A DNA stretch of 64,000 nt, taken from the NCBI RefSeq assembly GCF_006345805.1, contig NC_043006.1, forward strand, positions 91,822,001-91,886,000, written 5' to 3'. Shown in pieces: positions 13,606 to 60,667 of the stretch (the stretch's first letter is position 1; the number at the start of each line of letters is the position of its first letter). Both the position numbers and the translations under genes were made by a program. Below the pieces are notes generated by a model. The model was not told the origin of the DNA, searched no databases, and saw only the letters and a program-made list of their open reading frames with translations. This DNA is from Octopus sinensis (Eukaryota).

Positions 13606-13609
<4 letters not shown>

Positions 13610-14298
13610 CAAAATAAGAAAATGGAGAAATACATCAAAATCAATTATCAACTACCAGATAATACCCAATCACATAATTTATTAAACCACTACATATGAA
13701 CATTAAGGTCAAACATAATAATATAGAACAAAACAGTGTACATGAAGGAGTAATATGATACAATAAGTACAGTATGCATAAGTGAATATAAATAAATATA
13801 AATATAAATATAGACTACATCTTACAGCTGTTTCGGCCATGCAGATATGGGTGTCTCATTTTGCTCGGCTAATATGAGCAAAATGAGACACCCATATCTG
13901 CATGGCCGAAACAGCTGTAAGATGTAGTCTATATTTATATTTATTTATATTCACTTATGCATACTGTGCTTATTGTATCATATTACTCCTTCATGTACAC
14001 TGTTTTGTTCTATATTATTATGTTGACCTTAATGTTCATATGTAGTGGTTTAATAAATTATGTGATTGGGTATTATCTGGTAGCTGATAATTGATTTAGA
14101 TGTATTTTTCCATTTTCTTATCTTGTATTAGTAATTTGTGGTAAATCATTTTACCTTTGCCCATATAATACAGTAAATGAATTATTGCATCGCAATTTTT
14201 AGCATTTATGTATTAACTTTGTTGGGTACTTCACTAGCAGTATATTGGATATGTGTTATCCCATGGAGGGTTGCATTTACAACCCCTATCTCAATTTG
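13606..14298 (+). mobile_element. Foldback Penelope-like insert in (TA)n with the 3' half of a hammerhead
   Basis: ~260 bp arms 13606-13867 / 13878-14130; GGCC GAAA CAGCTG TA AGATG near 13904-13924; unique tail ending CCCCTATCTCAATTTG. Confidence 0.75.
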
Positions 14299-14737
14299 TA
14301 TATATATATATATATATAGCAATTAAGGACAACTACTTAATAAGGAAAACTTAACAAGAAATTGTCAGGTAGATAGCGTGAAAACCTCATAGAGAAAAAA
14401 TTTCGAAAATAATTATTTCTTATTGAACATATTAATTTATATATAGAGGGCATTATACATACATGCCAGATGGCATTATACATACATGCCACACGCTAAG
14501 AGGGACAATTAGTCATTTCTACCAAAAATATTACTAATCCCACCGAATGCAATTTTTCAAAGTAAGACATTTAAAAAATATAGACCTGTATCACAGTGAT
14601 TTCATACTTACGTATTCATAAAAAGTCTGACATTTACAGGATGTAATATATGTAAACTCACCCATGTGCTTCGTTGATGTTGATAAGTTAGCTGATCGGC
14701 TTAAGCGAGGCAGGGTCGTTTATGTATGATACATCCA

Positions 14738-14783
14738 GGCCTGCTGATGAATACGTAAGTATGAAATCACTGTGATACAGGTC
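14738..14783 (+). ncRNA. Minimal type I hammerhead ribozyme, intact
   Basis: GGCCTG CTGATGA ATAC GTAA GTAT GAAA TCACTGTGA TA CAGGTC; predicted cut after A14777. Confidence 0.9.
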
Positions 14784-15215
14784 TATATTTTTTAAATGTC
14801 TTACTTTGAAAAATTGCATTCGGTGGGATTAGTAATATTTTTGGTAGAAATGACTAATTGTCCCTCTTAGCGTGTGGCATGTATGTATAATGCCATCTGG
14901 CATGTATGTATAATGCCCTCTATATATAAATTAATATGTTCAATAAGAAATAATTATTTTCGAAATTTTTTCTCTTATGAGGTTTTCACGCTATCTACCT
15001 GACAATTTCTTGTTAAGTTTTCCTTATTAAGTAGTTGTCCTTAATTGCTAAATTTTTATTCCGAAAAAACTTTTCCTTTCCCGAAATGCAATTCGTAAAA
15101 AGTCTGACATTTACAGGATGTAATATATGTAAACTCACCCATGTGCTTCGTTGATGTTGATCAGTTAGCTGATCGGCTTAAGCGAGGCAGGGTCGTTTAT
15201 GTATTGATACATCCA

Positions 15216-15261
15216 GGCCTGCTGATGAATACGTAAGTATGAAATCACTGTGATACAGGTC
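15216..15261 (+). ncRNA. Minimal type I hammerhead ribozyme, intact
   Basis: Identical to 14738-14783, 478 nt downstream. Confidence 0.9.
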
Positions 15262-16571
15262 TATATTTTTTAAATGTCTTACTTTGAAAAATTGCATTCG
15301 GTGGGATTAGTAATATTTTTGGTAGAAATGACTAATTGTCCCTCTTAGCGTGTGGCATGTATGTATAATGCCATCTGGCATGTATGTATAATGCCCTCTA
15401 TATATATATATATATATATAATATATAATATATATATATATAATACAAAATAAGAAAATGGAGAAATACATCAAAATCAATTATCAACTACCAGATAATA
15501 CCCAATCACATAATTTATTAAACCACTACATATGAACATTAAGGTCAACATAATAATATAGAACAAAACAGTGTACATGAAGGAGTAATATGATACAATA
15601 AGTACAGTATGCATAAGTGAATATAAATAAATATAAATATAAATATAGACTACATCTTACAGCTGTTTCGGCCATGCAGATATGGGTGTCTCATTTTGCT
15701 CGGCTAATATGAGCAAAATGAGACACCCATATCTGCATGGCCGAAACAGCTGTAAGATGTAGTCTATATTTATATTTATTTATATTCACTTATGCATACT
15801 GTGCTTATTGTATCATATTACTCCTTCATGTACACTGTTTTGTTCTATATTATTATGTTTGACCTTAATGTTCATATGTAGTGGTTTAATAAATTATGTG
15901 ATTGGGTATTATCTGGTAGCTGATAATTGATTTAGATGTATTTTTCCATTTTCTTATCTTGTATTAGTAATTTGTGGTAAATCATTTTACCTTTGCCCAT
16001 ATAATACAGTAAATGAATTAATTGCATCGCAATTTTTAGCATTTATGTATTAACTTTGTTGGGTACTTCACTAGCAGTATATTGGATATGTGTTATCCCA
16101 TGGAGGGTTGCATTTACAACCCCTATCTCAATTTGTATATATATATATATATATAGCAATTAAGGACAACTACTTAATAAGGAAAACTTAACAAGAAATT
16201 GTCAGGTAGATAGCGTGAAAACCTCATAAGAGAAAAAATTTCGAAAATAATTATTTCTTATTGAACATATTAATTTATATATAGAGGGCATTATACATAC
16301 AGCCAGATGGCATTATACATACATGCCACACGCTAAGAGGGACAATTAGTCATTTCTACCAAAATATTACTAATCCCACCGAATGCAATTTTTCAAAGTA
16401 AGACATTTAAAAATATAGACCTGTATCACAGTGATTTCATACTTACGTATTCATAAAAAGTCTGACATTTACAGGATGTAATATATGTAAACTCACCCAT
16501 GTGCTTCGTTGATGTTGATAAGTTAGCTGATCGGCTTAAGCGAGGCAGGTCGTTTATGTATGATACATCCA

Positions 16572-16616
16572 GGCCTGCTGATGAATACGTAAGTATGAAA
16601 TCACTGTGATACAGTC
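16572..16616 (+). ncRNA. Hammerhead copy, one G missing in stem I 3' strand
   Basis: Same core; ends TA CAGTC. Confidence 0.75.
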
Positions 16617-17046
16617 TATATTTTTTAAATGTCTTACTTTGAAAAATTGCATTCGGTGGGATTAGTAATATTTTTGGTAGAAATGACTAATTGTCCCTCT
16701 TAGCGTGTGGCATGTATGTATAATGCCATCTGGCATGTATGTATAATGCCCTCTATATATAAATTAATATGTTCAATAAGAAATAATTATTTTCGAAATT
16801 TTTTCTCTTATGAGTTTTCACGCTATCTACCTGACAATTTCTTGTTAATTTTCCTTATTAAGTAGTTGTCCTTAATTGCTAAATTTTTATTCCGAAAAAA
16901 CTTTTCCTTTCCCGAAATGCAATTCGTAAAAAGTCTGACATTTACAGGATGTAATATATGTAAACTCACCCATGTGCTTCGTTGATGTTGATCAGTTAGC
17001 TGATCGGCTTAAGCGAGGCAGGGTCGTTTATGTATTGATACATCCA

Positions 17047-17091
17047 GGCCTGCTGATGAATACGTAAGTATGAAATCACTGTGATACAGTC
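17047..17091 (+). ncRNA. Hammerhead copy, one G missing in stem I 3' strand
   Basis: Same core; ends TA CAGTC. Confidence 0.75.
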
Positions 17092-17229
17092 TATATTTTT
17101 TAAATGTCTTACTTTGAAAAATTGCATTCGGTGGGATTAGTAATATTTTTGGTAGAAATGACTAATTGTCCCTCTTAGCGTGTGGCATGTATGTATAATG
17201 CCATCTGGCATGTATGTATAATGCCCTCT

Positions 17230-17272
<43 letters not shown>

Positions 17273-17905: not shown

Positions 17906-18637
17906 AAGGCAATTATGCGGATAAACAAATTGGATTTATTGAATATACCATTTTGTATATGAAATGCAAAACATGTATATTTACATACATGCAATACGAG
18001 AGAAAGCAAATGATGGAGACTTTCCGACGATGAATATTTAAATATACATTTACAGATACTTATATGAATAGATTCAACTTACACAGAGTACAAGCGACAG
18101 AAAATAGCTGAACCTCTCCTCATTCTGACCTGAAGTGCATGATCTTCTCTACCCCGAAGAGAGGGGATCGATTTATCCAATGTTGATTGCTCCAATTATG
18201 CTGCATATTGAGATGAACTACATCTGCCAATATTATGATGGATCTGTAAACCCCCAGAAACAGCTGTTGAACTTATAGCATCTTACGTCCTTCCCATTAA
18301 TTGTCTCAGTCGCTCCTCCTCTGTGTGAGTTTGATCTGTTAATATAAATATGTATATATTATACTTAGACATTCGTCGTCTCCACATTTTGCATTCGCTC
18401 GTTTTGAATGTATGCATATATACATATTTTGCATTTCATGGCGAAACTGTTATATTTAATATTTCTGATTTGTTTATTCACAAAATTGCCTCTATATCTG
18501 CTCAACTTCATCCGTCTCACAGCCAGTCTTCACCCCTTGGAATTGATCCCCTGTAAACACACCGGTGTTTAAGTTTGAACCATTTGGGCACTGCTAACTG
18601 TCTTTTGTACTGAGACTTTCTAGATCTCATCAGTTCA

Positions 18638-20509: not shown

Positions 20510-20513
<4 letters not shown>

Positions 20514-21452
20514 TTTTTTCTTCTTCTTTCAAATTTGCTTCCATTTCTTGCCGAGTGTCTTCCCGACTCCTAGGGCAAAGAAACTCATAGTATACATTGG
20601 TAGGCCATTAACCAAACTCAGTAGTTCGTTCATTTTTTTTTTTAAGTTAAATTAAAATACATGAGCAGCAGCAACAGTTCTCACATCGACAATGCTCTTC
20701 TCAATACGTGTGATGTACCAGTTAAGACAATCTTTTGCACTTCTTGCAGGGATGGTAAGCCAGGGATCATTCTCATATAATTTTCGGTTCCTTCTTGATC
20801 ATTCCTAGTGCTCCTACGATCACTGGTATTGTAACCGCCTTGAGATGCCCACATTTCTCAATTTCAATTAGGTCTTTATTATTATTATTATTATCATTAT
20901 TATTATTATTATACTATTATTATTACTATTATTATTATTATTATTGTTATTATTATTATTATTATTATTATATTATTATTATATTATTATTATTATTATC
21001 ATTATTATTATTATTATTATTATCATTATTTATATTATTATTATTATATTATTATTATATTATTATTATAATATTTTTACTTTTTTTTTCTTCTTTCAAA
21101 TTTTCTTCCATTTCTTGCCGAGTGTCTTCCCGACTCCTAGGGCAAAGAAACTCATAGTGTATTGGTAGGCCATTAAACCAAACTCAGTAGTTCGTTCATT
21201 TAAAAAAAATTTTTTTCTTAAAGTTAAATTAAAATACATGAGCAGCAACAGTTCTCACATCGACAATGCTCTTCTCAATACGTGTGATGTACCAGTTAAG
21301 ACAATCTTTTGCACTTCTTGCAGGGATGGTAAGCCAGGGATCATTCTCATATAATTTTCGGTTCCCTTCTTGATCATTCCTAGTGCTCCTACGATCACTG
21401 GTATTGTAACCGCCTTGAGATGCCACATTTTCTCAATTTCAATTAGGTCTTA

Positions 21453-21500
<48 letters not shown>

Positions 21501-21509
21501 TATTATTAC

Positions 21510-21581
<72 letters not shown>

Positions 21582-21601
21582 CATTATTATTATTATTATT
21601 A

Positions 21602-21658
<57 letters not shown>

Positions 21659-22032
21659 TTTTACTTTTTTTTTTCTTCTTTCAAATTTTCTTCCATTTCT
21701 TGCCGAGTGTCTTCCCGACTCCTAGGGCAAAGAAACTCATAGTGTATATTGGTAGGCCATTAAACCAAACTCAGTAGTTCGTTCATTTAAAAAAAATTTT
21801 TTTCTTAAAGTTAAATAAAATACATGAGCAGCAACAGTTCTCACATCGACAATGCTCTTCTCAATACGTGTGATGTACCAGTTAAGACAATCTTTTGCAC
21901 TTCTTGCAGGATGGTAAGCCAGGGATCATTCTCATATAATTTTCGGTTCCCTTCTTGATCATTCCTAGTGCTCCTACGATCACTGGTATGTAACCGCCTG
22001 AGATGCCACATTTTTCAATTTCAATTAGGTCT
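20510..22032 (-). repeat. Three tandem ~370 bp copies of the R4/Dong LINE 3' end separated by (TAA)n
   Basis: 20510-20876, 21075-21450 and 21658-22032 all match 22240-22615 and stop at the same TTTCAATTAGGTCT junction. Confidence 0.9.
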
Positions 22033-22037
22033 ATTTA

Positions 22038-22070
<33 letters not shown>

Positions 22071-22239
22071 TAATTATTATTACTATTATTATTATTATTA
22101 TGTTATTATTATTATTATTATTACATTATTATATATATTATTATTATTATTATTATTATCTTTAGTATTATATTATTATCATTATTATTATTATTATATT
22201 ATTATTATTATATTATTATTATTATTATTATTATTATAT

Positions 22240-25200
22240 TTTTACTTTTTTTTTCTTCTTTCAAATTTTCTTCCATTTCTTGCCGAGTGTCTTCCGACTC
22301 CTAGGGCAAAGAACTCATAGGTATATTGGTAGGCCATTAAACCAACTCAGTAGTTCGTTCATTTAAAAAATTTTTTTCTTAAAGTTAAATTAAAATACAT
22401 GAGCAGCAACAGTTCTCACATCGACAATGCTCTTCTCAATACGTGTGATTGTACCAGTTAAGACAATCTTTTGCACTTCTTGCAGGGATGGTAAGCCAGG
22501 GATCATTCTCATATAATTTTCGGTTCCCTTCTGATCATTCCTAGTGCTCCTACGATCACTGGTATTGTAACCGCCTTGAGATGCCACATTTTCTCAATTT
22601 CAATGAGTAGGTCTTTATATTTTCTGAGCTTGTCAAACTCTTTCGCTGAGATATTATGATCACAGGGGATGCTCATGTCGACCAATAAGCAAACTTTATT
22701 GTTTTGGTCTTTCACAACAATATCTGGTTTATTGGCCTTGATGTTTCGGTCTGTATGTACTGGAAAGTCCCACAGAATGGTTACATTTTCTCCTTCAGTT
22801 ACAGCCTCAGGGTGGTGATTATACCACTGTCGGCAGTTTGAGTTTTGATATTGTAATGCCGACTTATTAGCCTGTGGATATATTGGCCAACTCTGTCATG
22901 TCTTAATTTATACTCCACTGGTGCTAAGACTTTACATCCAGAGATTAGGTGGTCCACTGTTTCAATCATGTCGTTGCAAAATCGGCATTTTGGTCTGCTC
23001 CATTTTTCATCACATTGGCTGGTAGTTCGGGTTGATAGGCTTTGGTCTTGAGCAGCAGGATGAAACCTTCGCTCTCTGCTTTTAGCCTGAGCTCCGCAGC
23101 AACTGATGGGTTTGCTTCTGGTCAACATCAGCTTGTTTGCTGGGGTCACATATTTGCCGTGCAGGAGGTTTCTCCTCCCACCTATCAGCCAATTGCTCGT
23201 GCGCTTTTTTCATTGCCATCATTTTCACCTTCTTTGCACCAATAGTTTGCCGTACTTCCCTCGGGTTGTTCAGTTTGGGTATCCTGCACGAGATCAATAG
23301 CAAATTTTTGCTTTCCTTGATGATAGAATGAAGCTTCTTTCGTCTCTCGTGATTTTCCACGAGCTTTAGCATCCAGTCATTCGATATTTCGAGATTTTGG
23401 CCAGTCCAATTGTGGTTTGTTTGTAAGCTAGTTCAAATTGGATCAGGCCTCGACCTCCTTGGGCTCTGGGAAGGTAAAGGCGATCTACGTCTGCCTTTGG
23501 GTGGTGCATCTATTACAACTCAGCAGCTTGCGTATTTTTCTATCTATATTCTTTACTTCACTATATTCCAGTTCAACACATGTAGCTATAAGTAACAATG
23601 GAACTGCTAGGGAATTTATAGCTAACACCTTGTTACGTGCATTTAGTTCAGATTTCAGGACTGCACGAACTCTCCTATAACATTCCTTCCTGATTTTCTC
23701 TTTCATGCTTGCATGCTGAATACCAGAGCCTTCATTTATCCCTAAATATTTGTATGTTTGTTCTTGCTCAAGCTCTCTTATGATGTGTCAACATCTAACA
23801 CGACTGAATTTGTGGTCTTCACTTTCCCTTTCTGGAAAGTGGCCTTGGCACCTCTCAAGTCCAAACTCCATCCCGATGTCATCGCTGAATGATTTCACGG
23901 TGCGCAATAGGCCTTCAAGTTCATTATTGTCTTTACCATAAAGTTTAAGTCATCCATATAAAATAGATGGCTTATTTTTTTATTGGCAATTTTATACCCA
24001 TACCCTGTTCTGTTTAATTCACTTGTAAGGGGTATTAGGGCTATGCAGAATATTAAAGGTGAAAGTGAGTCACCTTGAAAAATTCCACAGTTGATGTTTA
24101 TATTTTCTGAGGCAAGTACTCCATTAGAGTGGTTATAATTGGAGATTCGTATTCCACAACGACATATTGTGCTTCAGGAAGTTTGAAATCACAGGGGAAA
24201 TTTTGAAGATGTCCAGCGATCTCAAGATCCATGGATGCGGTTATACTGTCGAAGGCCTTTTTATAGTCAATCCATGCGGTGCTGAGATTTCTGCGCTTGT
24301 TGTGACAGTTTCTCAAGGATCATACGATTGATTAGCAGTTGATCTTTGCATCCGTAAGAGCCTCGGCGGCACCCTTTTTGTTCAATGGGGAAAATATCGT
24401 TCTTCTCCATGAATGCATATGTTTTTCTCCGCCAGGATAGATGTTAGGATTTTATACGTGGTGGATAGACAGGTATAGGCGATCCGATAGTTTTTTGGAA
24501 GGTTGGTTTCGTTATTCTTTGGGAGTAGGTAAGTAAATTGTTAAGTAACCATTTCATTCAGTGTTTTCTTTGGGTCTCTCGTAATTCCATTGAGCAGCTG
24601 CTGAACTAGCTTTACCGTGTGCGCACGATGCGAGCGTGCGAGCCAGAAATTCGGCACCCTATCATTACCGGGGGATTTCCAATTATGGGCCTTCGTGAGT
24701 GCCTTTCTTAGGTCTGCTATTGTGATGTCTTCCCATGCTTGTTGTGTAAATTTTGTAGGATCCTTCAGTTTGTATAATCCAGTCTGCATTTATGTTGTAC
24801 GTCTTCTTGTCACTCCAAATCCTTTTCCAAAAGTTTTGAACTTCTTCCATGGGAGGGGGGTCTTTAACGGTTACTTTCTCCTTCCCTATTTCTCTGTAGA
24901 ATTTTTGGCATTGGATGTGAACAGTTATTTTGCTTGTAAAACGTGTTTCTCTTCTCAATCTTCGTATTCTTTGGGCTTTGCTTGGACTTTTGTTTCAGTT
25001 CAGCGTTCTTTTATTGATATCAGTTCTTCTCTTGGTGAGGATCCAAATTTTCTCTTCATCTTTCTTCCTGTTCTGGATCTTACATCATTCCACATATTAG
25101 TTCATTAATATTGATATTTCCCCTCTCATAAATTCAATCTCTTTTTCAATTTTACTTCTCCAGGTTTGATTTCTTCCCAGGTTTTGTTTTCTTTGTTTTT

Positions 25201-27980: not shown

Positions 27981-27984
<4 letters not shown>

Positions 27985-28308
27985 TAACAGAATGAGATAA
28001 AATTCCATGGCTGTGAAAGATTTCAGAAGATTTATAAAGAGGAGGTCTTACAGCTGATTCCAGGATATTTTATATATCCCGGAAATAGCTGTAAGACCGT
28101 CTCTTTATAAATGTTCTGAAATCTTTCACAGCCATGGAATTTTATCTCATTCTGTTAATTTTTTTATATATGCATGTTAATTTATGACCTACATTGGACT
28201 CCTCATTCGCATAATCACCGAACCTGGAGCTTAACTATAGTCTGTCCATAGCGCTTATTCAGAATTACCTGACACCTTTGGGTCTCCTTGACACCATTAC
28301 CTCTCATA

Positions 28309-37263: not shown

Positions 37264-37406
37264 ATTATATATATATATATACATATATACATATATATAA
37301 TATATATATAATATATATATTATATATATATATTTGTGTGTGTGCGTGTTTGTGTGTCTCTGTTTGTCCCCCCAGCATGGCCGCAGTCAACTGACTGAAG
37401 CAAGTA
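36966..37406 (+). mobile_element. SINE family B with expanded internal (TA)n
   Basis: Head GTGTGGTAAGAAGCTTGCTT; tail CCCAGCATGGCCGCAGTCAACTGACTGAA. Confidence 0.75.
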
Positions 37407-37414
37407 TATATATA

Positions 37415-37443
<29 letters not shown>

Positions 37444-37445
<2 letters not shown>

Positions 37446-38233
37446 TCAATATAAGGGTAGCAAAAAATTTAATAGAAATTTTTTTCGCCACCAGCGGTCT
37501 AGTGAGAAAGAAAAAATAGTCAAAAGACTATATAATATACATTCAACAATAATATTAAGGAATGGCCTTAATAGGCCATTCAACTCACTAAAACGAGCAG
37601 CCATACTCAAACCGCTAAATAGTAGTAATTCAGAAATCAAAGGAAAATTAAAAACACTTACCCTAATCATCTTTGGACTATGCATTGTTTCGACGTACTT
37701 TTTGATAAACCAGCCTAATTAAATTAAATTAAATTTAATCAAGTCAATTTACCACTGGTCCGTCTCATCGGCAAAGAAGCCAGGAGGAATAAATATTCCA
37801 CGAGGCAACAGCATCGATGCCTTGGGAATATATACTCTAAATTTTCAAAATCTACCGTCATCGCGCCAACTTATCAGCAGCAAATATAAACTGCTGATTT
37901 AATTTCAGAATTAGCCAAAAAATCATTAATTAATCAATATAAGGGTAGCAAAAAATTCAATAGAAATTTTTTTTTCGCCACCAGCGGTCAAGTGAGAAAG
38001 GAAAAATAGTCAAAAGACTATATAATATACTTTCAACAATAATATTAAGGAATGGCCTTAATAGGCCATTCAACTCACTAAAACGAGCAGCTAGACTCAA
38101 ACCGCTAAATTGTAGTAATTCAGAAATCAAAGGAAAATTAAAAACATTTCTGAATTACTACTATTTAGCGGTTTGAGTTTAGCTGCTCGTTTTACTGAGT
38201 TGAATGGCCTATTAAGGTCATTCCTTAATATTA
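37444..38233 (-). mobile_element. Retrozyme-like element: inverted arm plus ~1.4 tandem 488 bp monomers
   Basis: Direct repeat period 488 (AAGGGTAGC at 37453 and 37941); 38148-38233 is inverted; (TA)n on both flanks. Confidence 0.82.
37670..37777 (-). ncRNA. Type I hammerhead with U4C core and long stem II insertion
   Basis: Minus: TCTTTG CCGATGA GACG..~65 nt..CGTC GAAA CAATGCATAG TC CAAAGA. Confidence 0.7.
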
Positions 38234-38280
38234 TATATATAATATAATATAGATACATGCACACACACAAAAATAAAAAA

Positions 38281-49053: not shown

Positions 49054-50466
49054 CTTTCGATGGGATAATAAAATACTCAATGATATCAAGGAAAAAGATG
49101 GAAAAAAGCAAAAGCAGCTAAAAACAAATACACTTGAGTACATCACTTATATCTAAAAATAAAAATTCTTTGGTCAGCCTCAGAAAACAACGTCCAGACC
49201 TTTCGCCGCTACAAATTGTAATGGTTACCATCCTCCTGTAGCAAGCATCGAGTTACTACTAAGCAATATAGGATGAAGTCCCTTACTCTACAGCAAAGGA
49301 ATTCATCAGGAAGCGTGGGCAGTATATTTAAAAAAACCGTTACGTTGCAATATACATCATATAATTAAGGGCTAAAGAGGGTTATTCTAAAGCCAAATAC
49401 ACTGTTTTATCCACTTATAATCCGCTTGCTACAGGAAAATTGAAACTGAAAACGGGCAACAACCTTTAGAAAATTTAAATTTCTTTATCTCATATTGAAT
49501 CAATTTCGACTTAATCTTATAAAAAAGATATTTCCTTCTTCATTAGAACTTTCGATGGGATATATAAATAAAATACTCACGTATGATCATGGAAAAAGCA
49601 CAAGCTAAAAACATAACTACACTTGAGTACATCACTTATTCTAAAATAAAAATTCTTTGGTCAGCCTCAGAAAACAACGTCCAGACCTTTCGCCGCTACA
49701 AATTGTAATGGTTACCATCCTCCTGTAGCAAGCATCGAGTTTACTACTAAGCAATATAGGATGAAGTCCCTTACTCTACAGCAAAGGAATTCATCAGGAG
49801 CGTGGGCAGTATATTTAAAAAAACCGTTACGGTTGCAATATACATCATATAATTAAGGGCTAAAGAGGGTTATTCTAAGCCAAATACACTGTTTTATCCA
49901 CTTATAATCCGCTTGCTACAGGAAAATTGAAACTGAAAACGGGCAACTAACCTTAGAAAATTTAAATTTCGTTATCTCTCTATTGAATCAATTTCGGACT
50001 TAATCTTATAAAAAAAATATATTCCTTCTTCAGTAGAACTTTCGATGGGATATAAATAAAATACTCACGTATGATCATGGAAAAAGCACAAGCTAAAAAC
50101 ATAACTACACTTGAGTACATCACTTATATCTAAAAATAAAAATTCTTTGGTCAGCCTCAGAAAACAACGTCCAGACCTTTCGCCGCTACAAATTGTAATG
50201 GTTACCAGTCCTCCTGTAGCAAGCATCGAGTTACTACTAAGCAATATAGGATGAAGTCCCTTACTCTACAGCAAGGAATTCATCAGAAGCGTGGGCAGTA
50301 TATTTAAAAAAACCGTTACGGTTGCAATATACATCATATAATTAAGGGCTAAAGAGGGTTATTCTAAAGCCAAATACACTGTTTTATCCACTTATAATCC
50401 GCTTGCTACAGGAAAATTGAAACTGAAAACGGGCAACTAACCTTTAGAAAATTTAAATTTCGTTAT

Positions 50467-51744: not shown

Positions 51745-52198
51745 GTCACAATGAGGACATAAGGATATTTTTATCCAAAATACGCTGGTTTAATATGTAT
51801 TTTGGAGAGATAATTTTTCGTCCATGCATATATTATATGAAATATCATAAAATACCAAGTATTATTATTATTTAGTTTGAAAACGGAAAGATCTAGTGGA
51901 TAGAAATTAATTTATTAGTTAATTAACATATTAACCTACAATTGTATCATTTCATAACCAAAATTAAAACTCCAAAACATAAATAAATATATAATCTTTC
52001 ATTCTGGAATACCTTCAATGGAAAATTATTCTGAGGATTTTCCATCCAAGGTATTGCAGAATGCAAGATTATATATTTATTTATGCTTTGGAGTTTTAAT
52101 TTTGGTTATGAAATGAAACAATTGTAGGTTAATATGTTAATTAACTAATGAATTAATTTCTATCCACTAGATCTCTCCGTTTTCAAACTTAATAATTA
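51745..52198 (-). mobile_element. Foldback Penelope-like insert in (TA)n
   Basis: ~155 bp arms 51872-52025 / 52037-52197 containing GAAA CAATTG TA GGTT; unique tail 51745-51870. Confidence 0.7.
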
Positions 52199-52579
52199 TA
52201 TATATATATACATACATGCACACACACCTCCCCACAGCGCACACCAAGTCGCCACATATATATATATATATTCGTGCATATGTTTGTGTGCGTGTGTTTG
52301 TGTCTATGTTTATGTCAGCGTGTATGTACGTTTCATAAATATGTGTGTAGGTGCGCATTTAGAAATAGGACATGATTTATTATCCAGACTCTCGCACAAG
52401 TGAAACTCTTAGTTGCGACAGAGTACACCAGCAGCATTTAAAAAAAAATTCAAACTGTGCTACGTACATTTTTTTCTGTTTGGAATTCAAACCCTTAACT
52501 CTCCGTTTCATTTCCTCTCCTTTTTCTTGATGCATACCTACATATATACGCATATCTCTATGTATGTGAATGTATATAT

Positions 52580-54091: not shown

Positions 54092-54419
54092 TATATACAC
54101 ATAAACACACATACTCATATATACATGCATATATGTATTCATACATATCTTTATTTCTAGCATTTCCGGTGAGTGACCCCATAAATCTGTAAATGAATTT
54201 GTACGTTATAGTTGAAATAGTCTCAGTAAGGGATTCCTTTAGTTTCAAAACCCATATTTGAAGCCTCAGAAAGTCATTAAATAATGCCTTAGAAAGACAT
54301 CACTAAATGTCTTTCTAAGGAACCTTTCATTACCACATGTGTACATGAATGCATGCATGCTTGCATATATTATTATATTACAGACACATGTATCAAAACA
54401 GGAGATTAAAAGAAGCAGT

Positions 54420-54635
54420 TTTGGTATTGTTCCTTCATCATTACACATGTTTCACCTGCTAATGAGAATTACAAAATTGTACATGTAGGAGAAACATGTA
54501 AGACAACTCCTATGAGAAATTCTGTCTCTCAAGAATTACTAACAAGAATTGTCTTACATGTTTTTCCTACATGTAGAATTTTGCGATTCCTCGTGGCAAA
54601 TGTGACGTGTTATAGTGAACAAATAATACCATTTT
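54420..54635. repeat. Diverged ~215 bp palindrome (MITE/foldback relic)
   Basis: CAAAATTGTACATGTAGGAGAAACATGTAAGACAA / TTGTCTTACATGTTTTTCCTACATGTAGAATTTTG. Confidence 0.65.
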
Positions 54636-54663
54636 TTTCAGTCTCTTGTTATGATATGCAATT

Positions 54664-58769: not shown

Positions 58770-59764
58770 GTTAGTTAGTTAGTTAGTTAATTTGGCTCAA
58801 AAGCAAATAGCAAGGCCATGTAGGGGGACATGGAGTTAAGTACAGGGTGGTGTTCATGTAAAGAGTTCAGGCCACTTGAGGTCCAGGGAGGCTTTGAACA
58901 AAGCGGTCGTCGGCATCTTCACCATCTCGTCTGGCAGCTTGTTCCACGGATCCGCAACCCGGACGGAGAAAGCTCCTCTCCTTCGATTGAGATGAAATCG
59001 TCGCAGGTAGAGCTTTTCGGAATGACCCCGCAGCCGACGCTCTGGAGCAGGAGTGAAGAACAGCTCTTTCGAGAGGTTACACTTTCCGCTTATAATGTTG
59101 TGGGCGAGAATGAGATCACCACGGCGGCGGCGTTTTTCAAGAGAATAAAGGTCGAGCGTCCTCAGCCTTTCTTCGTAGGACAAATTTTTGAGACCATGAA
59201 CCATGCGGGTAGCCAGCTTCTGGACTCTTTCGAGATGCTGTATGTCTTTGAGGAGATAAGGAGAAGAGGCTTGAATCCCATACTCCAATATGGGTCTCAC
59301 CAGCGTGACATAGAGTGGTAGGAATATGGCTGCTGTGAGCATTCCGAATGACCGTCGAATCAAGAACAGAATTCCGCGTGCTTTGTTGGCAGCATGGACG
59401 CACTGGGCCGAAGGCGAAAAGGAGGAATCCACCAAGATACCTAGGTCCTTTACCTGATCGGTCCTCTCCAGCAGCAGACGACCCGGCTCGAAATCAAGTT
59501 GAGTTGCAGGAGTAGAGTCGACAGGCAGATGACAGAACTTTGACACGTTCAGACAGAGGTCCCAATCGTTAGACCACTTCCAAATTTGGTGGAGGCATCG
59601 ACGAAGATCCTCTATATTACCGCGAGGAGCGACCAGTTTGATATCGTCGGCAAATAGAAGGGTATGTTGCGTGAGGTCGTCGGGCAAGTCATTTATGAAG
59701 ACTAAGAACAACAAGGGCCCAAGCACTGAACCTTGAGGCACGCCACTGCTCGCACTGGAGACGT
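58770..59764 (-). mobile_element. Young 5'-truncated CR1-clade LINE with (TAAC)n tail
   Basis: Uninterrupted 295 aa ORF at 58854-59741: PQGSVLGPLLFLVFINDLP, LFADDIKL, LERVQK..LSYEERL..SLEKRRRRGDLI, FSVRV..WNKLP. Confidence 0.93.
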
Positions 59765-60667
59765 TTGTATGTATGTATGTATGTATTTATGTATGTATGT
59801 ATGTGCGTGTGTGTGTGTGTGCGTGCGTGTGTGTTTGTGTGTACAGTGTAGGTTGTTTGGCGTTGGCACTAGGTTGTCTGAACCCCGGTTCTTTTGTCCT
59901 TTGGAGTCGAAAAAAATACCAGTTGTAACCAATATAACTGACTAATTCTTCTGCTCAAATTTGAAGAATTACTTCTATGTTAGAAGAAAAAATGTAAGAA
60001 ATATAGTAAGAACGAAGGAACAATATTCCTTACTATTACAAGACATTATAACTATCTCAGCTACATCGATTGAAATTTCGTTTTATATTTACTGAAAAGT
60101 ACGGGGTCTTTGAGAATGTGGGTGCTGTAGTTTAACTTCCACTTGAGCTTTAGCTGTAGTTTAAGCATATAAAGTAAATGCAGGACAGTGAAAGGTGTCA
60201 TCCTGCTGAACCCTTAACAAAAGCAGATGGAATGTCTCGTTTTTTCTTTGTTGTTGTTGTTGTAAAGACTCCTTGGCTGTAATTGTGAATGGTAGGCACA
60301 CAATTGCTTTTATAACTTTCTTCACTACACTTCTTTCGTAAAAAAAAAGGAAAAAGTATTTATGAGAAACGTGACGTGAATCCTGGTCGTTAAGCAGACT
60401 TAGAAATTTCGTTCGGCTTTTTGTGATAACTTAGAAGTAGATCAATAACTCTGATAAAGAATCTCGTATAAAATGAGAGAGAGAGGTGGGGAGAGAAAAA
60501 AAAACAAAACAAAAAGACAGTGAATCAAATATGGTGGAGAGAAAAGTAACTTCTGAACAATAAAACAACGTTAAAACTTCTAACTTGACACAACATTAAA
60601 TGCGGAAAAAGAGAAAGAAAGAAAAAAAAAACAACTGAATGTTTCTCAAAATGACGCTGTTAATATT

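Follow-up and report, generated by a model that had tools for sequence, protein, structure and literature searches.

The region that we analyzed, referred to here as the window, is a 64,000-nt stretch of the Octopus sinensis genome (contig NC_043006.1, positions 91,822,001 to 91,886,000 of the forward strand) that is AT-rich and contains many microsatellites. A 790-nt element (37445..38234) is inserted there inside a (TA)n tract, with TA-rich microsatellite adjoining both of its outer ends. Its parts are given below, with unit positions numbered from +1, the first base past the predicted cut site of a hammerhead ribozyme.

37405..37444, no strand: (TA)n microsatellite bordering the 3' end of the element, the probable insertion target
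37445..37456, minus strand: 3' terminus of the element; CCTTA begins 12 nt before the end
37445..38149, minus strand: sense copy spanning 1.44 units of the repeat (488-490 nt), with its 5' end at +17 to +20 and its 3' end at +231 from the predicted cut
38146..38149, no strand: head-to-head junction with the 4-nt microhomology ATTT, complementary to 38124-38127
38146..38234, plus strand: inverted 5' arm of 89 nt, unit +39 to +127; CCTTA begins 12 nt before its outer end
38235..38250, no strand: AT-rich, microsatellite-like sequence bordering the arm on its outer side

Within the sense copy, 37933-38149 repeats 37445-37659 with a 95% match (8 mismatches and one indel over 217 nt), and the unit period is 488 at the left side and 490 at the right, owing to a 2-nt indel. 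The first-pass annotation had described a tandem family with a 488-nt period and a sense copy that starts about 19 nt downstream of the cut and then folds back over 86 bp. The period stands at 488-490 nt, and the locus is no array, since it holds 1.44 units and one complete ribozyme motif. The start does lie near the cut, at a point that can be placed no closer than +17 to +20 because ATTT fits both sides of the junction. The fold-back is likewise present, as an arm of 89 rather than 86 positions that mirrors 38039-38127 across an 18-nt spacer. No target-site duplication was discernible at the (TA)n flanks.

The arm differs from each direct copy at 4 of 89 positions, and this divergence, together with that between the two copies, indicates that either the insertion is old or the assembly is noisy. 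At 37602, the arm carries a minority family allele that is shared with the adjacent copy and absent from the distal one; this single site hints that the adjacent unit may have given rise to the arm, and that different template units may underlie the two units. The longest ATG-started frame in the unit encodes 79 aa, and the unit of about 490 nt is apparently non-coding. Its predicted fold has a z score of -6.3. Comparison with the other tandem and palindromic elements of the window revealed nothing beyond short AT-rich matches. Rfam microRNA-model matches at 38101-38172 were set aside, because they coincide with the fold-back hairpin and score far under the gathering threshold.

The hammerhead is predicted on the minus strand of the sense copy, with the following layout.

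37670..37777, minus strand: predicted type I hammerhead with a GUC cut site at 37676/37675 (descriptor scan and fold)
37777-37772 / 37675-37670, minus strand: stem I, 6 bp, extendable beyond one mismatch
37771-37765, minus strand: core CCGATGA, with C at core position 4 (37770)
37764-37692, minus strand: stem II, 73 nt, consisting of 4 closing pairs and a 65-nt predicted hairpin extension
37691-37688, minus strand: GAAA
37677..37688, minus strand: stem III and loop, 2 bp, a near-palindrome (10/12)

Every position of the core boxes is as expected except for the U4C change, and helix I is open. A relaxed descriptor scan returned three matches in the window (this motif and two in another family) against one across 20 shuffled windows, and a tighter descriptor requiring a 6-bp stem I and a 4-bp stem II matched in 1 of 2000 dinucleotide shuffles of the element. 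The motif is thus beyond chance, and the U4C hammerhead with a long stem II that had been called from the sequence was confirmed on the minus strand by its layout, the scans and the shuffles. Rfam gave no hammerhead family match at this motif, either at the gathering score or at E values up to 10; this test is insensitive, because canonical-sized motifs at 14744 and 15222 also fall under the gathering score. In the predicted fold of this copy, pair probabilities are 0.97-0.99 for the closing pairs of stem II, about 0.55 for stem I and 0.02-0.03 for stem III, and the three-helix ribozyme fold is feasible with an energy 2.5 kcal/mol higher than the minimum. For the loop III palindrome, a self-duplex of -6.7 kcal/mol is predicted, an arrangement of a type known for dimeric animal hammerheads (PMC4209133, in part), and the stem III palindrome is predicted to permit a dimeric ribozyme. 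The likely role of the ribozyme would be to process tandem transcripts into monomers or circles, probably weakly or as a dimer, cleavage itself being a prediction.

A second hammerhead family is present on the plus strand of the window, at 14319-15398 and 16145-17244. Its 478-nt unit carries a type I motif of canonical size, with cores at 14744 and 15222, and the family has a long inverted 5' arm with a 127-nt spacer. The 16145-17244 block is a 99% local duplicate of 14319-15398, and its motifs are short of one stem I base.

Part of the unit at 37445..38149 was found in 20 of 24 listed sequencing runs (10 studies, four organism labels), none of which is recorded as RNA. Run X10 may be RNA, and it was given no weight as a sign of expression. 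Contigs from four runs were aligned to 37500-37990, contig depth not being taken as copy number; 1060, 856, 487 and 144 contigs per run matched the unit, which therefore belongs to a large family with many related copies. Head-to-tail joins of 37989 to 37501 appeared in two of the four runs (X1 and X3), and no contig covers the whole unit. Pattern scans for further flanked copies yielded a single chance match of 26 nt in metagenome contigs, none in genome contigs, and zero and one match in viral contigs, the one lacking ribozyme helices or visible homology.

Among the best 40 of 97 variant rows, there was no change in the core boxes and none at 37770. Near-100% differences between the family and the window copy occur, among the variants listed, at 37657, 37705 and 37759; at 37657, the family reads T and the window copy carries a private base. 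Since near-fixed differences appear at these positions and none at 37770, C4 is likely the majority state of the family. None of the joints listed removes the stem II extension, and C4 with a long stem II appears, from these alignments, to be the family norm. Between 37657 and 37775, 15 variants were listed, of which 4 are unpaired, 6 preserve a pair and 5 disrupt one as single changes. No two-sided compensatory change was seen among them, and the split of the pair-affecting variants (6/11 kept, 5/11 broken) is unphased. The variant at 37679, which accounts for 72, 35, 73 and 63% of depth in the four runs, makes loop III a perfect palindrome.

These data bear on a reading in which the ribozyme is decayed or inactive, residing in a pLTR fragment or satellite, and in which the tandem and the fold-back arose by DNA-level duplication or repair, or by assembly. 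The U4C change is reported to lower activity considerably in vitro (PMC3088659, in part), the long arm would displace the usual loop 2, and 8 of 9 Xenopus retrozyme dimers were uncleaved in vitro (10.64898/2026.07.22.740005). Homopolymer indels between the window copies suggest a noisy assembly, and the junction of the window copy is absent among the joints listed in the four runs; the missing joint carries no weight, however, as contigs show presence and not absence. Against decay, the four common variants at paired positions of the stem II extension all preserve pairing. The listed variants also miss every core position, a weak point and no sign of selection, because only about one would be expected there. 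Against an artifact, the differences between the arm and both direct copies are unlike a read chimera, and CCTTA is equidistant from the two outer ends, each of which adjoins (TA)n. On balance, we regard decay combined with a DNA-level or assembly origin as highly improbable.

The first-pass annotation had further proposed that the template RNA's 5' end was made by ribozyme cleavage. In favor of this, no more than 20 nt separate the end from the cut, which has a probability of 4-5% under uniform ends; the corresponding chance of an end within 25 nt is about 5% for one end, 10% for two ends and 23% for the five examined. The same insertion, however, was copied continuously across the cut site at 37675, indicating that the template was longer than a cleaved monomer, or was a circle. 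One of the five family junctions listed fell within 40 nt of the cut, and it was the locus itself; the other four candidates (three joints and one long-flank contig, among those listed) gave none, a sample too small to count as a refutation. The three other opposite-strand joints listed, for one of which direction is given, lie at +58/+208, +468/+325 and +298/+194. That at +468/+325, recorded in X3, is head-to-head like the studied junction and also crosses the cut site. The long-flank contig, of 556 nt from X1, departs from the unit at about +334 (by hand conversion) and represents either a junction or a diverged relative. The neighboring hammerhead family (14319-17244) begins at +315 to +321 of 478, so that its single junction is not near the cut; it was counted once, its two copies being local duplicates at 99%.

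In each of the four runs, summed contig depth drops 1.9- to 2.9-fold from 37636-37652 to 37670-37686 (+39 to +1), and loose ends within the unit are most numerous at 37654 (+22; 10, 9, 6 and 4 contigs, among the ends listed). Three of the four loose-end consensus lines at 37654 run, by eye, into the stem III motif (GACA, ACAATGC or GACAA), and two of these three are in register after one extra A and share a common new stem I segment; the X3 consensus stops short of the motif. Entry into the stem III motif points to sister variants with a different stem I, a reading that does not account for the X3 line. For this reason, and because the private base at 37657 clips alignments, 37654 was not counted as a breakpoint hotspot. 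In contigs of X1 and X10, the loose-end consensus at the equivalent of 37655-37675 hints at a sister subfamily in which the 3' strand of stem I is different and the spacing is the same.

A cleavage-defined end would require a multimeric template that the hammerhead had cut at the 5' end but not at the following site; reverse transcription would have run to +1, followed by internal 4-nt pairing and trimming of 16-19 nt. The end at +17 to +20, and the depth fall and pile of loose ends near +22 in the four runs, fit this scheme; should the arm be a second cDNA, the ends of both cDNAs (+17 to +20 and +39 to +42) would be no more than 45 nt from the cut. R2 (PMC3774820, in part) and Perere-3 (PMC8501958, in part) provide precedents. 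The scheme nevertheless demands one cut site next to an uncut one, as well as trimming, and it has to face the 0/4 and 0/1 counts at the other junctions, the consensus lines that reach stem III in three of four runs, and another depth step at 37873/37874, far from the cut, which equals or exceeds the fall near the cut in three of the four runs (4.0- to 4.4-fold in those three, 2.4-fold in the fourth). Moreover, in the anole Penelope-like element (PLE), no RNA-seq reads start at the cut site, according to the portions of PMC11167929 available, and the literature searched contained no precedent for ribozyme-set 5' ends in PLEs. A 4-nt partner within 60 nt is available for 159 of 622 stop positions; the microhomology thus permits the junction without selecting the spot. 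We therefore consider it unlikely that hammerhead cleavage made the template's 5' end, and the start near the predicted cut site is likely a coincidence.

The reading that we favor, and hold to be probable, is that the locus is a 790-nt copy of an apparently non-coding unit with a predicted hammerhead, inserted into (TA)n by PLE machinery with ordinary 5' truncation. PLE insertions are described, in parts of PMC8557442, as partial tandems with an adjacent inverted, 5'-truncated copy and a bias toward microsatellites, and this hallmark, a partial tandem with an adjacent inverted 5' piece in a microsatellite target, is present at the locus. In the anole PLE, the protein cleaves AT-rich DNA, extends both target strands and uses two internal start sites, and in vitro it supports insertion without hammerhead cleavage, mainly from unprocessed RNA (PMC11167929, in part). 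In the mechanism that we propose, the reverse transcriptase and endonuclease of a PLE would insert into the (TA)n tract a template RNA that is multimeric or circular and has an intact cut site. Reverse transcription would start at +231, pass the cut site, continue for about 470 nt and halt at +17 to +20 as an incidental 5' truncation. The cDNA end would then join the 89-nt inverted piece at the microhomology, this piece being either a snap-back of the cDNA or another cDNA, for which the opposite target strand served as primer at +127. The first-pass view of the locus as a retro-insertion is supported.

Of the 8 outer ends of TA-flanked elements in the window, 6 are preceded by a CTTA that begins 10-14 nt away, compared with about 8% of body positions; this motif was chosen after the ends had been seen. 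The ends that bear it are 37445, 38234, 48859, 14318, 52200 and 13607. At the studied element, CCTTA stands at exactly 12 nt from both ends. CTTA is possibly a common start signal for reverse transcription, or an endonuclease or resolution signal. The presence of CCTTA at both ends keeps alive the two-primer origin of the arm. In an extended form of it, both nicked target strands would prime reverse transcription at CCTTA sites on RNA whose end a slow U4C, long-armed hammerhead had cut; both cDNAs would run to that end, anneal at the microhomology and be trimmed. We judge this extended form improbable; were it true, the inverted 5' arms of Penelope insertions would record in the genome where ribozymes had cleaved in vivo, and the 65-nt arm of stem II would act as a brake or as a handle for protein binding, through which some sites could escape cutting and be copied across.

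Head-to-head junctions with short spacers are likewise present at three further elements of the window, none of which gave a hammerhead in the scan. Palindromic insertions with a short spacer and TA-rich flank lie at 13607-14130, 27982-28160 and 51863-52200, and older ones at 17907-18491 and 54391-54656; the palindromic insertions of the window are likely head-to-head, PLE-type fragments. The segment 48854-51235 lies in (TA)n and repeats a 491-nt unit in 4.8 copies, and its end resembles the 3' end of the 37445..38234 element. Its minus strand carries CTGATGA and a GAAA-GGTC segment, for which hammerhead stems I and II could not be constructed; Rfam gave no ribozyme match on 49600-50300. At 20513-22614, four units of about 360 nt, in which no hammerhead core was found, lie between long (TTA)n tracts and may be the repeated 3' ends of a LINE. 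An autonomous PLE was not found among the 10 of 20 long window frames that were scanned, where the sole reverse transcriptase was an RVT_1 match (E 2.6e-12) in a 310-aa open frame on the minus strand (58854-59786), 5'-truncated in a (CATA)n tract. We take this frame to be LINE-like.

The role of the hammerhead in PLEs is described as unclear in portions of PMC8557442, and in the sole in vitro PLE system ribozyme cleavage is dispensable (PMC11167929, in part). A many-copy family with a marked cut site permits a direct genomic count of 5' ends. That Rfam missed the variant studied here suggests that length-limited searches undercount animal hammerheads. Taken alone, the locus is unremarkable, an old insertion of an element whose kind is known, and its odd feature is the ribozyme variant; the hammerhead motif is a real feature of the locus, and a template 5' end set by its cleavage is doubtful.

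Non-LTR retrozymes are defined by type I hammerheads in tandem low-GC repeats (PMC7229834) and have been linked to the pLTRs of PLEs (10.64898/2026.07.22.740005). The sequence has a short, low-GC, apparently non-coding unit with one type I hammerhead and no LTR, and by these features the element is a non-LTR retrozyme with Penelope-like insertion anatomy. It resembles the metazoan members in its unit of a few hundred nucleotides with one hammerhead each, as well as in its head-to-tail joins, stable predicted fold and short palindromic stem III. The unit of 490 nt slightly exceeds the 150-450 bp given for retrozymes (PMC7229834) and lies inside the 51-972 bp range of the later preprint (10.64898/2026.07.22.740005). 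With its one ribozyme, the locus falls outside the working definition of "active" in that preprint, which calls for two complete motifs. Unlike the metazoan retrozymes, it combines C4 with a 65-nt stem II extension, apparently family-wide.

Endonuclease-bearing PLEs (Penelope/Poseidon and Neptune) share with the element the partial tandem and adjacent inverted, 5'-truncated piece, the AT-rich microsatellite target without a visible target-site duplication, and more than one 3' start site (PMC8557442 and PMC11167929, both in part), in addition to a hammerhead with a palindromic helix III (PMC4209133, in part). The element differs from them in lacking a reverse transcriptase or GIY-YIG frame, and its ends lie 104 nt apart within the unit, compared with a tail of 30-40 bp. 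Ribozyme-set 5' ends, the model adopted in the first-pass annotation, are established for R2 with HDV-like ribozymes and proposed for Perere-3 with twister variants. In the parts of those two reports cited here (PMC3774820 and PMC8501958), the cut coincides with the 5' junction, is upstream of it or is beside the target-site duplication, whereas here the junction is 17-20 nt downstream of the cut and another site was read through.

The literature searched held no account of this family or of a comparable stem II in an animal retrozyme; supplements or repeat libraries may list the family. For viral type I hammerheads, a "long" helix II means 6-8 bp in the portions of PMC13725137 cited here, and stem II of the octopus motif is much longer. 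A natural U4C hammerhead is known from a viroid, where it is slower in vitro and sufficient in vivo (PMC3088659, in part); here, that core change occurs together with a long stem II, within a genomic repeat of an animal.
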